From the IMG/VR virus record IMGVR_UViG_2671181055_000011: 48,393 nt of DNA; one strand, written 5' to 3'. A program made the position numbers and the translations under genes. The notes beneath the pieces are model-generated. The model was given only the letters and a program-made list of their open reading frames with translations. It was not told the origin of the DNA and ran no database searches. This DNA is from a virus. Lineage: Duplodnaviria > Heunggongvirae > Uroviricota > Caudoviricetes. This document shows, one piece after another, positions 10,237-48,393 of this stretch (the first letter of the stretch is position 1; every line of letters starts with the position of its first letter).

Positions 10237-10589
10237 NNNNNNNNNNNNNNNNNNNNNNNNNNNNNNNNNNNNNNNNNNNNNNNNNNNNNNNNNNNNNNNN
10301 NNNNNNNNNNNNNNNNNNNNNNNNNNNNNNNNNNNNNNNNNNNNNNNNNNNNNNNNNNNNNNNNNNNNNNNNNNNNNNNNNNNNNNNNNNNNNNNNNNNN
10401 NNNNNNNNNNNNNNNNNNNNNNNNNNNNNNNNNNNNNNNNNNNNNNNNNNNNNNNNNNNNNNNNNNNNNNNNNNNNNNNNNNNNNNNNNNNNNNNNNNNN
10501 NNNNNNNNNNNNNNNNNNNNNNNNNNNNNNNNNNNNNNNNNNNNNNNNNNNNNNNNNNNNNNNNNNNNNNNNNNNNNNNNNNNNNNNNN
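10237..10589. other. Run of 353 N (masked or unresolved sequence)
   Basis: Literal n characters. Confidence 1.
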
Positions 10590-11807: not shown

Positions 11808-11945
11808 ACGTTACTAGATCAAAGAGCATTAGTTCATATGTAAATTGACATTTTTCTGGCACAGGGGAGAGCTAGCGTGGTTGTCCGCTTTGTGCCAATA
11901 GCGGACATTGCTGGCTCATGGTATGTTAGTTTAAGGAGGCAGGTT

Positions 11946-12968
11946 ATGCCCTGTATTTCGCTGTGGTATAATAGTTGCGCAATTGATACAAGGGAGCGTT
12001 ACATCGTGAAAATTGTTTTCGAGGTTAATGGAAAGAAAGTTCCACTAAAATCTTTAAAATACATAAGCAAAAAAGATCAACTCGAAGTAATGAAAAACTG
12101 GTTCTTTGAAAACTTTGAAGATCCGGCAAATGCTTGTCCGTATGAAAGTAGAGAAGGTGGCTATGCTTACATATATGGCGGGCCGTATGATGCGAGCGAA
12201 GAACTACAATCCATCTTCGGTCAATATGTTAAATCTGAGTATATTGAGGAATTAGTAGATGAATTACAAACACAATGTTTTGACTGGTCTGGAAACTCAA
12301 ATAATATAGATGATTGGTACGATGATGATATCTACGACGCTGTAACGTCTTCCGGTAATCCGTATTTAAAATTCATTGATAATATCGATAAAATAAAAAA
12401 ACTTGCAAAAGATAAAACTGAACAACAGCAAAAAAACCACTTGCTTAGTTTGCTCTACACGAATGTTATTACAGCTTTGGAAACGCTTTATGTTGAGCTA
12501 TTCATTAATTCTATAGAGAAAGATGATGTCTACATAGCCAATTGTATAGAAAAAGGTAAGACTGAATTTAAAGTAAGCAAAGATATTGCTGCGTTGCCTT
12601 TCAAGGGTGAACCCATCGAGAAAATTAGGGGAGAGCTAATCAGGTCAATCAAGGAACACTTGATCAGTGCAAGCTGGCATAGCACTAAAAAGGTAATCGA
12701 CCGCTATGAAGCTACATTCGATATAAAAGTACAAAAAGACTGTCCGATAGAAGCTATTGAATTGGCAACCCTCAATCGAAATCACTTAGTGCATCGTGGT
12801 GGAAAGGATAAAGAAGGGAACCTCGTAGTGATTACAGACCAGGATCTTGAAACGCTGATTGAAAATGCATCGAACCTGGCAATTATGCTCTACAACAGTT
12901 TAAATGTAGCAACGAATAAAACCACCATTTTGCAACCAGATGACAAACCGTTCATTCATGAATTTTAA
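11946..12968 (+). CDS. AT-rich accessory protein with C-terminal RNxxxH (HEPN-like) motif; candidate Abi/RNase-type effector
   Basis: AAGGAGG RBS (11933-11939) 6 nt before ATG 11946; motif R-N-H-L-V-H encoded at 12777-12794; a 100-nt sample (12006-12105) is 29% G+C by my count versus roughly 50% in flanking phage genes. Confidence 0.6.
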   Translation: MPCISLWYNSCAIDTRERYIVKIVFEVNGKKVPLKSLKYISKKDQLEVMKNWFFENFEDPANACPYESREGGYAYIYGGPYDASEELQSIFGQYVKSEYIEELVDELQTQCFDWSGNSNNIDDWYDDDIYDAVTSSGNPYLKFIDNIDKIKKLAKDKTEQQQKNHLLSLLYTNVITALETLYVELFINSIEKDDVYIANCIEKGKTEFKVSKDIAALPFKGEPIEKIRGELIRSIKEHLISASWHSTKKVIDRYEATFDIKVQKDCPIEAIELATLNRNHLVHRGGKDKEGNLVVITDQDLETLIENASNLAIMLYNSLNVATNKTTILQPDDKPFIHEF

Positions 12969-12983
12969 TAGCGCAGGTCATAC

Positions 12984-13985
12984 ATGGATATTCGCACACG
13001 AAAGACAAAATTTTTAGAGTCGTTAGATTCAACTGAAGTGATACGCAAAGCAGTAAGTCTCGCTATAGATTGCATTATTGATAATCATAATAGTAATGAA
13101 GATACCCCCTTAGTTATTACCAGCTATGATGATCTCTGTAGAATCCAGGTGCTAAATTATGTACAGGAGTTTTGCGAAGCTGCATTCCCTGATATGGATG
13201 AATATTACTTTAGTCCTAACATACTTCGCATCAACGGCAAGACTAGTGAAGAAGCTTGTATTAACTTAATTAAACTCTTAAGAAGTACAAAAGGCATGCT
13301 ATTCTGGTCCGATGCCCCATCGTGGTTCGCTAGCCTCCCCGACGGATTATTCCATGTTGTTAACATTGATCAAAAAATCGTTACTCGCGGCCTTAATAAG
13401 AAAAACTCTAAGCCGACAATAATCAATAAAGATTACAGTGTAGATACACTACTATCAGAGCTATTTTTGAATGGCGCACACATGGAGCAACCCAACGTAC
13501 ACAACGTTTCTGAGGGAAACATGAAGTTCTATGATGAATGCCATGCTGGATTAATCAGACCAATACCCGCTCCAATAGGCGCGTCATACGATGAAGAGAT
13601 CACAATTAATTCTCCAGATTGGCAAAAGCTCGCGTGTGTAGCTTTACGCCGCTATCAGTCGAAGGAATGTCATGACGGAATGCAATGGGATACAACCGAT
13701 CATGGTTGGACTGATGTAATCGCGTATCCATTCGTCGAAGAAATACAATCAATGGATAATAGTGGTTATCGACAATGTTTAGTTGGGCTGGTCACAATAA
13801 ACAATTCAAATGCAAATTCTCCGTACCTATCTACCGTTTGGATACATCCATTTTATCGCAGGAGAGGGTTATTAAGTAAGTTATGGCCAAAATTACAAGA
13901 GTTATATGGAAGTAACTTCGAAATTGAGCGACCTAATGAAAATATGAAAGCATTTCTGAAAAGTGCGAAACACGCAGATTACTAA
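12984..13985 (+). CDS. AT-rich accessory protein with C-terminal GNAT-like acetyltransferase motif
   Basis: Starts 15 nt after previous stop (operon); motif VWIHPFYRRRGLLSKLW resembles GNAT motif A (V-x-P-x-Y-R/Q-x-x-G-x-G/A). Confidence 0.6.
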   Translation: MDIRTRKTKFLESLDSTEVIRKAVSLAIDCIIDNHNSNEDTPLVITSYDDLCRIQVLNYVQEFCEAAFPDMDEYYFSPNILRINGKTSEEACINLIKLLRSTKGMLFWSDAPSWFASLPDGLFHVVNIDQKIVTRGLNKKNSKPTIINKDYSVDTLLSELFLNGAHMEQPNVHNVSEGNMKFYDECHAGLIRPIPAPIGASYDEEITINSPDWQKLACVALRRYQSKECHDGMQWDTTDHGWTDVIAYPFVEEIQSMDNSGYRQCLVGLVTINNSNANSPYLSTVWIHPFYRRRGLLSKLWPKLQELYGSNFEIERPNENMKAFLKSAKHADY

Positions 13986-14168
13986 TTTATGAATCAGTCT
14001 GTGGAGTTAGGGTTGGTGTGAACAAGTAGGGTAAGAGCCTCAACGTGATGCTATGCCGACCTGCTCCCTGAGAATTCACACAGAAGGCTGCTAGCAATGT
14101 CTGCAGATCGCTCAAAGCGGACTAAAATGTTGGCTTGTTTCTGACTTAGAGCATTTAAGGAAGTGCTG

Positions 14169-14387: not shown

Positions 14388-14545
14388 TTGATTACATACT
14401 GGCTAGAAAAAAGGTGTTACCTTGGTTTATCTTTGTCCGGCAAGGTGCGCTCATTAATCTTAAGTAAATTTATTGCTCAAGTATTCAGATTACTTCTTAT
14501 GGTTGAAGTCTCCTGTCAATGTAGAACCAATATATTTACAAAAAT

Positions 14546-14605: not shown

Positions 14606-14944
14606 CTATTTTTTGGTGCTATAGACTTTTTCGCCCGAAAAGTCTGGAGCGACCCAAAAGTTAATATTAAACTGAGCATCATCGCTTAGTTCAACACGGT
14701 GCCAGTATTGTGGTGGGCTTGTTGCAAAAGCGCCAGCATTAATGACTACTTTTATCTCCGGTTCAGTAGCATTCTCATCAGTAAAACCATAATATGTTAC
14801 AGTGCCTTCCATTACGCACAACTGCCCAAAAACACCTGCTGCTGTATTATGATGTGTTAATAACGCTGAAGGTACGTTCTCTTTTGTGAAGAACGGAGTT
14901 GAGCGTTTGATTACCCAATCTTTAGGAATTCTCTTGTGTGTCAT
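14606..14944 (-). CDS. YeaR-like (DUF1971/TehB-related) protein; start at MTHKRIP (ORF extends to 14968)
   Basis: Recalled similarity to E. coli YeaR; GAGGAG RBS upstream of ATG 14944. Confidence 0.5.
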   Translation of the reverse strand: MTHKRIPKDWVIKRSTPFFTKENVPSALLTHHNTAAGVFGQLCVMEGTVTYYGFTDENATEPEIKVVINAGAFATSPPQYWHRVELSDDAQFNINFWVAPDFSGEKVYSTKK

Positions 14945-15152
14945 AACCACCTCCTCCAAAACATGCATTAAAAATGCATCTTTTGGAGGGTTATGTCAAG
15001 CTGTTATGAAACACATAATTGATATGTTGATTAGAGGAGAAGATAGAATAAATATGGTTGTTTTTCGTATAACTATTTGTTTTACTTTTAGTTTATGCAT
15101 TCTGTGTGTTAGGAATAAGTTATTAAAGTTTAATCAAAAAATCTCGATGTAG

Positions 15153-15757
15153 TCCACATAGATTACTGTTACTGAACCTTATTGTGTGTATTAGTTGTGT
15201 TCTGAAATTTCAGCTTAATTATTTATGATGTATTTTTTAACGATAAATATTTTCCCAGGATACCTTTACTGTGTATATAAATAAATTATATACGCATAAA
15301 TAATGTAAAGGCGTCCTTTTAGATATATCTTATCAAATGTTAATGACTTGAGTGGGAAATATGATTCCAGCAACTTATCATGTGGCTACTTTATAAAAAT
15401 AATGCCCATATAAAACAACAAGCGAAAAGGATTACGGATAAAAAAGGAGCGAGATGTGCGAACTTGTTATTTTCCATGTTTAACCACCTTAAATAATTGA
15501 TGATGACGGGATGATTGCATCTGTAATGCTTTTATTGAAATGTTATGATAAAAAAGAACTTTTGCATAACATTAAAATGTAATTTATCTAATCGTTTTTA
15601 ATAATAAGTGTCGTATTTCTATCCTTGTACCAGCTATTTGATATGTAGTGTTTGTTCATGCTATGTGGGGCTTTACACCATAGCCAGTTTATTTATACTT
15701 TATTCGTCAGCCTGAACAACTGGCATCTGCTGCGCTGCGCCATCGAGAGATTGAGAA
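15153..15757. other. About 600-bp AT-rich non-coding segment upstream of the nin-like operon
   Basis: No ORF of 60 aa or more; many A/T tracts and TATA-like hexamers. Confidence 0.5.
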
Positions 15758-17639: not shown

Positions 17640-18171
17640 GGGCTGGTTTATTGTATGCCAAATGATTATTAAAAAGGTTGTGTTAATAACAAGATCCGAA
17701 ATAATATGCCTGCATATTTTTATCTTGCTTATATTCTGCATATTGTGCATAGCAGGCTCATCCCTGCAATCAAAACTGTATGATGAGTATTTTTTGTTTT
17801 CCTTTTTTCCAGTCATCTGATGATGACCTGCTTCTTTTTAATCCGGATCGACATCAGTTTTTTAAGATAATTCCTGCGAGTTATATGCATAAATGCCACA
17901 AACTCCGCATTTTATGTGGTTGGGAGTTGCCGGGCGCGCAGTGAGTTTGCTAAGAAAACTCCTGCATGGTGAATCCCCCTGTGCGGTGGGGTGATACCAT
18001 TAACCTTTTCTGTCGCCGACAGGTATCACGAACATTTTGTTCACCGGGAGGCACCCGGCACCATGCACTTCAATAGATTCTCTCCACATTATGGATATTC
18101 TTTCAGAATATCCCACGCAGACTTTGTGTAAATGTTAACAAATGTGCGTTTTATTTGATCTGATTCGCTGT

Positions 18172-19672: not shown

Positions 19673-20169
19673 TGCCTCCATCATTACGAAAAGTCGTTGC
19701 TGCTGCTATTGGTGGCGGAGCAATTGCTATAGCATCAGTGTTAATCACTGGCCCAAGTGGTAACGATGGTCTGGAAGGTGTCAGCTACATACCATACAAA
19801 GATATTGTTGGTGTATGGACTGTATGTCACGGGCATACAGGAAAAGACATCANNNNNNNNNNNNNNNNNNNNNNNNNNNNNNNNNNNNNNNNNNNNNNNN
19901 NNNNNNNNNNNNNNNNNNNNNNNNNNNNNNNNNNNNNNNNNNNNNNNNNNNNNNNNNNNNNNNNNNNNNNNNNNNNNNNNNNNNNNNNNNNNNNNNNNNN
20001 NNNNNNNNNNNNNNNNNNNNNNNNNNNNNNNNNNNNNNNNNNNNNNNNNNNNNNNNNNNNNNNNNNNNNNNNNNNNNNNNNNNNNNNNNNNNNNNNNNNN
20101 NNGCAATGGAAAGGTCTCATGACTCGTCGTGAGATTGAGCGTGAAATCTGTTTGTGGGGTCAGCAATGA
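19672..20169 (+). CDS. SAR endolysin (R21-like lysozyme); middle masked by N-run 19853-20102
   Basis: N-terminal Gly/Ala-rich SAR segment [18 protein letters not shown]; start overlaps holin stop; stop overlaps Rz start (ATGA). Confidence 0.8.
19853..20102. other. Run of 250 N inside endolysin gene
   Basis: Literal n characters. Confidence 1.
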
Positions 20170-40612: not shown

Positions 40613-44090
<3,478 letters not shown>

Positions 44091-44160: not shown

Positions 44161-44684
44161 NNNNNNNNNNNNNNNNNNNNNNNNNNNNNNNNNNNNNNNN
44201 NNNNNNNNNNNNNNNNNNNNNNNNNNNNNNNNNNNNNNNNNNNNNNNNNNNNNNNNNNNNNNNNNNNNNNNNNNNNNNNNNNNNNNNNNNNNNNNNNNNN
44301 NNNNNNNNNNNNNNNNNNNNNNNNNNNNNNNNNNNNNNNNNNNNNNNNNNNNNNNNNNNNNNNNNNNNNNNNNNNNNNNNNNNNNNNNNNNNNNNNNNNN
44401 NNNNNNNNNNNNNNNNNNNNNNNNNNNNNNNNNNNNNNNNNNNNNNNNNNNNNNNNNNNNNNNNNNNNNNNNNNNNNNNNNNNNNNNNNNNNNNNNNNNN
44501 NNNNNNNNNNNNNNNNNNNNNNNNNNNNNNNNNNNNNNNNNNNNNNNNNNNNNNNNNNNNNNNNNNNNNNNNNNNNNNNNNNNNNNNNNNNNNNNNNNNN
44601 NNNNNNNNNNNNNNNNNNNNNNNNNNNNNNNNNNNNNNNNNNNNNNNNNNNNNNNNNNNNNNNNNNNNNNNNNNNNNNNNNNNN
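44161..44684. other. Run of 524 N (masks most of lom)
   Basis: Literal n characters. Confidence 1.
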
Positions 44685-47809: not shown

Positions 47810-48393
47810 TGGCATTCAGAATGAGTGAACAACCACGGACCATAAAAATTTATAATCTGCTGGCCGGAACTAATGAATTTATTGGTGAAGGTGATGCATA
47901 TATTCCGCCTCATACAGGTCTGCCAGCAAACAGTACCGATATTGCACCGCCAGATATTCCGGCTGGCTTCGTGGCTGTTTTCAACAGTGATGAGTCATCG
48001 TGGCATCTCGTTGAAGATCATCGGGGTAAAACGGTTTATGACGTGGCTTCCGGCGACGCGTTATTTATTTCTGAACTCGGTCCGTTACCGGAAAATGTTA
48101 CCTGGTTATCGCCGGAAGGGGAGTTTCAGAAGTGGAACGGCACAGCCTGGGTGAAGGATACGGAAGCAGAAAAACTGTTCCGGATCCGGGAGGCGGAAGA
48201 AACAAAAAACAACCTGATGCAGGTAGCCAGTGAGCATATTGCGCCGCTTCAGGATGCTGCAGATCTGGAAATTGCAACGGAGGAAGAAATCTCGTTGCTG
48301 GAAGCATGGAAAAAGTATCGGGTATTGCTGAACCGTGTTGATACGTCAACTGCACCTGATATTGAGTGGCCTACGAACCCTGTCAGGGAGTAA
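47809..48393 (+). CDS. tfa: Tail fibre assembly protein Tfa
   Basis: 194-aa ORF overlapping stf stop (TAATG); typical Tfa position. Confidence 0.85.

Follow-up and report, generated by a model that had tools for sequence, protein, structure and literature searches.

A hairpin-bounded cassette encoding HEPN and GNAT-fold proteins in a Rac-type Escherichia coli prophage as a candidate phage-defence locus

What do two adjacent AT-rich genes do in the early region of a lambdoid prophage? The question is raised by a 48,393-nt stretch of viral DNA (IMG/VR record IMGVR_UViG_2671181055_000011; the whole stretch is referred to as the window), in which a Rac-type lambdoid Escherichia coli prophage hosts a 2.2-kb cassette with two co-oriented genes (11883-14122). 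A first-pass annotation of the sequence had proposed that the cassette, composed of a HEPN-like and a GNAT-like protein, is a candidate undescribed defence or toxin-type module. The two proteins are good candidates for phage defence, because elsewhere both sit among known anti-phage genes. The favoured reading, to which a rough probability of 0.55 is given, is that of a mobile cassette in which gene 1 encodes a single-chain sensor-effector and gene 2 is a separate defence-island gene, the two being linked without forming an obligate toxin-antitoxin pair.

The two proteins and their genomic settings

The intact, near-identical cassette was found in 205 of 5,426 complete E. coli genomes, including the extraintestinal pathogenic and avian pathogenic (ExPEC/APEC) reference strains S88, IHE3034 and APEC O1, and both of its products are still annotated as hypothetical. 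The two open reading frames (ORFs; 11877/11946-12968 and 12984-13985, both on the plus strand) are separated by 15 nt. Their co-orientation and their position between the replication genes and the nin/Q block, as first described, were borne out by the ORF coordinates and by an identical annotated E. coli locus, in which the cassette follows the ydaU-like, dnaC-like, DUF1627 and DUF977 genes and precedes DUF1367, DUF1364 and DUF1133. The low G+C content reported for positions 12006-12105 was exactly 0.29, and the values for the first ORF, the second ORF and the entire cassette were 0.36, 0.39 and 0.39, against 0.49 in the left flank (replication genes) and 0.46 in the right flank (nin block).

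Gene 1 (12006-12968, plus strand; RefSeq WP_014639476.1, "hypothetical protein") encodes a 320-amino acid (aa) protein with two domains, a HEPN/RES N-terminal domain 1 (NTD1; PF18870) at aa 26-92 (12081-12281, plus strand), proposed here as a sensor or regulatory module, and a HEPN domain at approximately aa 140-308 (12423-12929, plus strand). The R-x4-H catalytic motif, R258-N-H-L-V-H263 followed by R264, was located at 12777-12794 on the plus strand, precisely where it had been read; R258 and H263 correspond to R278 and H283 in a 340-aa version of the protein. In an alignment of 58 gene 1 sequences extending down to 26% identity, R258, H263 and R264 were invariant, as were E159 and W224-H225. 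The AlphaFold model was confident (predicted local distance difference test, pLDDT, 89) and displayed the all-alpha helical bundle of HEPN proteins, with the R-x4-6-H motif opening the last core helix. The HEPN call for gene 1 is thus sustained by both its fold and its invariant R-x4-H. The window protein scored 22.2 bits with PF18870 (E 1.9e-4), below the cut-off of 27.4 bits, and gave no match to PF18735 (RiboL-PSP-HEPN) at E <= 1. Among the 58 aligned family members, PF18870 matched 54 (best E 1e-6) and PF18735 matched 27 (best E 7.1e-11).

The architecture of gene 1 is not new. A HEPN/RES-NTD1 fused to a HEPN domain was catalogued computationally in 2013, with Klebsiella KPK_1764 as an example, and NTD1 was also listed in fusions to RES toxins and other domains (Anantharaman et al. 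2013, PMC3710099). The description of an undescribed module has to be softened; what looks new is the family to which gene 2 belongs and the bounding of the cassette by hairpins. In a further fusion, on IMG/VR contig 3300025162_000083 (locus L066, 3909-5279), an N-terminal PIN_8 nuclease domain was followed by a C-terminal NTD1. Judged by its fusions to HEPN, RES and PIN_8 domains, NTD1 is a module that behaves independently of the effector it is attached to, and since interchangeable toxin domains share it, the simplest reading is that NTD1 does the sensing or regulating in a sensor-effector contained in one polypeptide. Through gene 1, the HEPN/RES-NTD1 module, which is common to HEPN, RES and PIN effectors, would become accessible to experiment.

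The start of gene 1 was initially placed at ATG 11946, which would give 340 aa. This was wrong, and the true start is almost certainly GTG 12006, because the RefSeq protein starts there, homologues of 310-320 aa align from MK(I/V)VF, a conserved extended -10 element falls 3' of ATG 11946, and the sequence AAGGGAG precedes the GTG. The predicted -10 element, TGgTATAAT (11964-11972, plus strand), was read from the sequence as part of a putative promoter; the copies from Serratia, Rahnella, L088 and Aeromonas retain it in the form TGnTA(C/T)AAT. A two-hexamer sigma-70 scan did not call the element because no good -35 is present, and counts from a simple sigma-70 and terminator scan were no higher than those from shuffled sequence. 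The ribosome-binding site AAGGGAG (11990-11996, plus strand) lies 9 nt 5' of GTG 12006 and is also kept in copies that have the gene 1 module only, such as L100.

Gene 2 (12984-13985, plus strand; RefSeq WP_000354966.1, "hypothetical protein") encodes a 333-aa protein and is preceded by the 15-nt spacer (12969-12983, plus strand), which contains a weak ribosome-binding site, cAGG, at 12974-12977. The protein consists of a family-specific N-terminal alpha/beta domain (aa 1-172; 12984-13499, plus strand) and a GNAT-fold domain (approximately aa 175-333; 13506-13982, plus strand) that ends after helix alpha4. The N-terminal region free of recognizable motifs thus spans about 170-190 aa instead of the approximately 230 aa first estimated. 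The model was confident (pLDDT 90), and its C-terminal half showed the GNAT core, a sheet with alpha3 and alpha4 around the coenzyme A (CoA) site, so the GNAT call was correct. The motif-A-like stretch VWIHPFYRRRGLLSKLW, covering beta4-alpha3, was found at 13836-13886 on the plus strand, and W286, H288, P289 and R292 are invariant on strand beta4 and helix alpha3. The pyrophosphate loop reads R292-R-R-G295-L-L297, compared with the canonical Q/R-x-x-G-x-G/A; across the family R292 is invariant, some members have R, Q or N in place of G295, and the loop never closes with G or A but with L, M or I. PF00583 matched the window protein with 19.9 bits, below the cut-off of 20.7, and matched 16 of 41 family members at E <= 0.01.

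The gene 2 family is small, comprising 66 clusters at 90% identity that are conserved over the whole length, and is confined to Gammaproteobacteria, among them Enterobacterales, Aeromonas, Shewanella, Marinomonas and Idiomarina. When 1.84 billion representative proteins were searched with a profile of its N-terminal domain, 23 matches were obtained, nearly all of which had the same 330-346 aa architecture or were fragments of it; the two exceptions were weak matches (E 4e-5 and 2e-4) to longer, unrelated-looking proteins. No match to this domain was found among PDB sequences, and profile searches of PDB sequences with both families and with each half of gene 2 returned chance-level matches only. 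An origin of the N-terminal domain as a decayed copy of the GNAT half was considered and rejected (hhalign probability 0.6%). As a small, sharply delimited family that recurs in defence islands, gene 2 could reveal an acylation-based step in phage-host conflict. On two independent contigs, a 273-aa protein without a Pfam match is encoded approximately 45-50 nt 3' of an Idiomarina-type gene 2 homologue (L013, 7051-7872; L275, 6055-6876), and it could be a lineage-specific partner.

Homologous loci place both genes, together and apart, beside known anti-phage genes. The pair adjoins McrB/McrC in Serratia and a TIR protein with Thoeris (SIR2_2/STALD and ThsB_TIR) in Aeromonas; it directly follows a GajA/GajB (Gabija) cassette in L127 and is flanked by LeoA/LeoBC (Eleos) and GajA/GajB in L121. 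Gene 1 alone occurs between gpA and the portal gene Q of a P2-like phage, the interval that contains old and tin in P2, beside an ApeA_NTD1 protein; elsewhere it adjoins integrases and a DUF2326 protein. The ApeA_NTD1 protein next to a gene 1 homologue in a P2-like phage is 452 aa long (L037, 3338-4696, minus strand). Gene 2 alone was found beside SIR2_2 and HerA, directly 5' of a gene for a SIR2_2 protein, facing an Abi_2 gene in opposite orientation, and surrounded by a cluster of TerB, BrxC/D, helicase, Mrr and HEPN_Toprim_N genes. Taken together, the genomic context points strongly to defence.

From these domains and settings a working scheme can be proposed. Positions 11883-14122 form a self-contained accessory cassette that moves horizontally and occupies the slot 3' of DUF977, probably with an extended -10 promoter of its own from which both genes would be co-transcribed. 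NTD1 would hold the C-terminal HEPN ribonuclease (RNase; R258-x4-H263) inactive until a phage-derived cue releases it, and the ensuing RNA cleavage would halt translation and lead to abortive infection or growth arrest, with protection as the presumed outcome. Gene 2, with its unique N-terminal domain and minimal GNAT fold, would most likely transfer an acyl group from acyl-CoA or bind a related ligand. The two genes would have been joined in an operon in one lineage and have stayed linked since.

Linkage and independence of the two genes

The pair, with an identical 15-nt spacer, was recovered in at least 14 flanking contexts. Outside E. coli it occurs in Serratia grimesii (97% nucleotide identity), Aeromonas (86%), one further contig (79%) and many metagenome contigs, and the 15-nt spacing was confirmed in the Serratia, Aeromonas and L099 copies. 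In comparisons with diverged copies, the ratio of nonsynonymous to synonymous substitution rates (dN/dS) was 0.12-0.19 for gene 1 and 0.19-0.43 for gene 2, with dS up to about 1.1. Such low dN/dS at a dS reaching about 1.1 indicates that both genes are functional and that the arrangement is old.

Each gene also occurs on its own. Relatives of gene 1 at or below 76% aa identity were without a nearby gene 2 in every locus examined, and at 75% nucleotide identity gene 1 alone forms a clean single-gene insertion beside sucD, with a GC-rich terminator-like hairpin directly 3' of its stop codon (L100). Relatives of gene 2 at or below 62% identity had no gene 1 nearby, and a search among them for an obligate conserved partner found none and no constant neighbour. 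Furthermore, gene 1 is deleted in four loci at about 90% nucleotide identity, which retain the left end of the cassette and the last ~60 nt of gene 1, followed by an intact gene 2 (L006, 5817-6000; L088, 4817-5000; L124, 1424-1600; L089, 4876-5000). The deletion junction shared by L006, L088 and L124 retains the -10 element and that of L089 loses it; two different junctions imply at least two separate deletion events. Gene 2 remains under purifying selection in L006, L088 and L089 (dN/dS 0.26-0.41).

The gene pair proposed initially is therefore conserved, in that it recurs in at least 14 contexts, and is neither obligate nor co-distributed, given the solo occurrences and the repeated loss of gene 1. 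As judged from the loci compared, the two genes are paired in one particular lineage. That they form an obligate toxin-antitoxin pair is unlikely, and a classical toxin-antitoxin relationship in either direction is disfavoured because the HEPN protein is tolerated without gene 2 and gene 2 is kept without the HEPN protein. Cooperation of the two genes within the linked lineage would nevertheless be compatible with their independent occurrence.

The strongest competitor is a form of such cooperation, namely one integrated system in which gene 2 neutralizes the HEPN toxin by modification, or senses infection and licenses the HEPN RNase. We consider it possible, on the unlikely side. The neutralizing variant would be a type VII-like toxin-antitoxin system, by analogy with the minimal nucleotidyltransferase (MNT) that AMPylates HepT. 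An integrated system would account for a 15-nt spacer fixed in at least 14 contexts, at dS values up to 1.1 and with purifying selection on both genes. Distant gene 2 relatives sometimes closely precede varied effector-type genes (SIR2_2 at 14 nt, Mrr_cat at 35 nt), a pattern that a constant gene 2 partner with swappable effectors would fit, and orphan antitoxins after toxin loss are a known pattern that fits the gene 1 deletions leaving gene 2. Against this stand the lone gene 1 of L100 and the partnerless gene 1 relatives, which argue that the HEPN protein is tolerable without gene 2, as well as the lack of a constant neighbour for gene 2 relatives at or below 62% identity. Neither protein contains a DNA-binding domain in a Pfam profile search, unlike a typical antitoxin.

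The partner here is neither a nucleotidyltransferase, as in HEPN-MNT (HepT/MntA), nor RnlB-like, as in RnlA/LsoA, and no NTP_transf_2 match was obtained for gene 2. The adjacent MNT and the co-distribution that mark type VII HEPN-MNT systems are both missing from this locus, each gene being widespread without the other. In contrast to HepT and RnlA, gene 1 encodes a 320-aa protein with an extra N-terminal domain and occurs partnerless.

Boundary hairpins and the cargo slot

The cassette is delimited by two related hairpins of 24 nt each. The left hairpin, L (GTCCGCTTTGTGCCAATAGCGGAC; 11883-11906, plus strand), has 7-bp arms, GTCCGCT/AGCGGAC, and a DNA folding energy of -9.3 kcal/mol (z -3.35). 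The right hairpin, R (GTCTGCAGATCGCTCAAAGCGGAC; 14099-14122, plus strand), lies where the cassette homology ends. Homology to copies in unrelated contexts begins exactly at 11883 and stops at 14059-14122. Three such hairpin motifs were observed in the window and none after shuffling, and the exact L pattern was present in more than 120 IMG/VR contigs among the matches listed.

The same hairpins accompany many other genes. L lies 5' of no fewer than 20 different sets of genes, and many of these sets close with an R-like motif 0.5-5.8 kb further on. Several island contigs contain arrays in the order R, 15-40 nt, L, genes, R and L, genes, and the arrays include Gabija (hairpin-bearing loci: L121, L123, L126, L127, L088, L106, L276-L278 and L152-L231). 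The cargo following L comprises DarT with a Macro-domain partner, a 341-aa RelA/SpoT protein, a putAbiC protein, DUF4365 and DUF6650, together with non-defence genes such as NUDIX and HAD, an EAL protein and oxidoreductases.

The slot that this cassette occupies is filled in other E. coli prophages by a TetR-amidohydrolase-NTP pyrophosphatase-SIR2 operon, a hypothetical gene of 269 aa, a RelA/SpoT gene or a pair of transporters, and in each of these L begins 70-100 nt past the DUF977 stop codon. Where the right flanks were examined (L276-L278), an R-like hairpin ends the cargo and directly abuts the same conserved right flank. After DUF977, related E. coli prophages carry varied cargo, for example QueH together with HokD, a cytosine methyltransferase accompanied by an NgoMIV-type endonuclease, a hydrolase, or small nin-type ORFs. 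Because its content varies among related prophages, the position after DUF977 is a cargo slot, and the first-pass proposal of foreign cargo in a variable prophage slot is upheld by this survey. A query in which the left flank runs directly into the right flank, as at an unoccupied slot, was covered to at least 80% by no E. coli genome.

An attC-like reading of the boundary repeats was rejected on the architecture, with a hairpin at each end, and on the core sequences. No RYYYAAC/GTTRRRY cores were seen at the boundaries by eye, without an attC covariance model; a long attC-like fold at the boundaries was not better than in shuffles (z -0.03 and -0.82), and no integron integrase was seen beside the hairpin arrays. 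Literature searches found no published description of the 24-nt hairpin motif. One copy of the pair, in Aeromonas dhakensis (L095, AP027931.1), lacks the L and R hairpins; only a few kb separate it from resistance genes of the class-1-integron type (sul1-like, qacE-like and aadA-like, with an integrase), from insertion sequence (IS) elements and from Thoeris.

A bolder proposal combines two claims, that the L and R hairpins constitute a cassette-exchange system of enterobacterial prophages and islands, and that the HEPN-GNAT cassette is a new defence system of two genes, its GNAT-like protein acting together with the HEPN RNase. Units composed of an L hairpin, cargo and an R hairpin would be swapped at fixed slots and stacked in arrays, either site-specifically or through short homology, for example via RecET or Red, and their cargo would comprise Gabija, DarT with its Macro partner, RelA/SpoT (CapRel-like), AbiC-like, SIR2 operons and the HEPN-GNAT pair. 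Both claims being true together appears rather unlikely to us. If the hairpin-bounded architecture is general, it would account for the traffic of defence genes between chromosomal islands and prophage slots of Enterobacterales, and the hairpins would serve as a sequence tag for finding new cargo.

Several observations weigh against the favoured reading of a mobile cassette with an autonomous sensor-effector and a separately acting gene 2. Both window proteins score below the respective Pfam cut-offs (22.2 versus 27.4 bits for gene 1 with PF18870, 19.9 versus 20.7 bits for gene 2), and a Foldseek search of the PDB returned nothing significant for gene 1, although the folds expected at the outset, HEPN for gene 1 and GNAT for the C-terminus of gene 2, were both assigned. 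The pyrophosphate-loop motif of gene 2 is degenerate and its fold seems to end after alpha4; because of these two features acyl-CoA binding is plausible and not assured, and gene 2 may not bind acetyl-CoA. The long retention of the pair at a fixed spacer, which the favoured reading plays down, could reflect functional coupling. Finally, the slot and the hairpin cassettes also carry non-defence genes (QueH, transporters including BCCT, alpha/beta hydrolase), and guilt by association is weaker in a prophage slot with such cargo.

This last point is also what speaks for two ordinary prophage morons outside defence, placed side by side by accident, with gene 1 as, for example, an RNA-processing or regulatory protein and gene 2 acetylating a small molecule, an antibiotic or a host protein; QueH, a BCCT transporter, NUDIX and HAD, EAL, oxidoreductases and an alpha/beta hydrolase would be comparable occupants of the slot and the hairpin cassettes. 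However, both families recur by Gabija, Eleos, Thoeris, McrBC, SIR2-HerA, ApeA-like and Abi_2 genes and at the P2 cargo hotspot, and conflict systems characteristically have such a HEPN domain, with an intact R-x4-H and fused to a module common to RES and PIN toxins. This non-defence reading is regarded as improbable. It is very improbable that either gene, or both, serve the prophage in counter-defence or as a weapon against other phages, for instance with gene 2 acetylating a host immune protein in the manner of AcrVA5, a GNAT-fold anti-CRISPR that inactivates Cas12a by acetylation, since this precedent and the early-region slot are offset by the many copies in chromosomal or defence islands outside prophages, by the large extra domain of the 333-aa gene 2 protein and by the lack of association with any particular host system.

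Relation to known systems and further features of the window

The pairing had initially not been recognized as any named system, and this was supported. Searches of PADLOC-DB v2.0 and NCBIfam returned chance-level matches only (E >= 0.01) for both proteins, and PHROGs assigned both to families of unknown function. Literature searches by accession, sequence and keyword (HEPN with GNAT and defence) found no description of either protein.

The closest relatives of gene 1 in design are AbiD/AbiF (that is, Abi_2), AbiJ, AbiU2 and ApeA, which likewise combine a C-terminal HEPN R-x4-H with a non-catalytic N-terminal domain in one polypeptide, and gene 1 shares the phage and defence-hotspot location of these single-protein HEPN abortive-infection proteins. 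Its NTD1-HEPN fusion is exactly the architecture listed by Anantharaman et al. (2013, PMC3710099). Gene 1 differs in scoring below the Pfam cut-offs, in matching no PADLOC model and in having a GNAT-like gene 3' of it in this lineage. No experimentally tested member of the NTD1-HEPN family was found.

Gene 2 shares with the GNAT toxins TacT, AtaT, KacT and ItaT a GNAT fold in a mobile, conflict-associated gene. Type II GNAT toxins have a single domain and a length of ~160-180 aa, and each is accompanied by a DUF1778/RHH (ribbon-helix-helix) antitoxin. Gene 2, in contrast to TacAT-type systems, encodes a two-domain protein of 333 aa with a degenerate motif A, and its sole operon partner is the HEPN protein, for which no RHH or DUF1778 match was found.

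The cassette as a whole resembles integron cassettes, morons and the cargo of lambdoid and P2/P4 hotspots in being a small unit, with or without a promoter, exchanged at a fixed slot, and such units, like integron and hotspot cargo, occur in arrays that are rich in defence genes and have structured repeats between the units (Rousset et al. 2022, PMC9122126). Unlike integrons, which have a single 3' attC with RYYYAAC/GTTRRRY cores, a hairpin is present at both ends, L 5' and R 3'.

At the identical annotated E. coli locus, the genes upstream of the cassette are recET, racC, kilR, sieB, ydaT, ydaU, dnaC-like, DUF1627 and DUF977, and those downstream are DUF1971 (minus strand), DUF1367, DUF1364, DUF1133, the lysis genes and trkG. 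An Rfam match to the RalA antitoxin small RNA (sRNA), the antitoxin to the Rac RalR toxin and a marker of Rac, lies at 1557-1735 of the window. Homology among E. coli prophages breaks near position 14406 as well. Between the DUF1971 gene (14606-14968, minus strand) and the DUF1367 gene, about 800 nt (14969-15757) are ORF-poor with 25-35% G+C; no gene is annotated there in the identical RefSeq locus and no Rfam match reached the gathering score. N-masked runs occupy 10237-10589, which interrupts the dnaC-like replication gene, as well as 19853-20102, 42887-42967 and 44161-44684. A 3.3-kb contig labelled as a Collinsella sp. metagenome-assembled genome (L004, JAIHTM010000277.1) encodes both cassette proteins with 100% aa identity to the E. 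coli copy, and its assignment to an actinobacterial genome is probably a binning error or contamination. Further Rfam matches in the window were an STnc100 sRNA at 17934-18120 and IS009 at 48152-48350.

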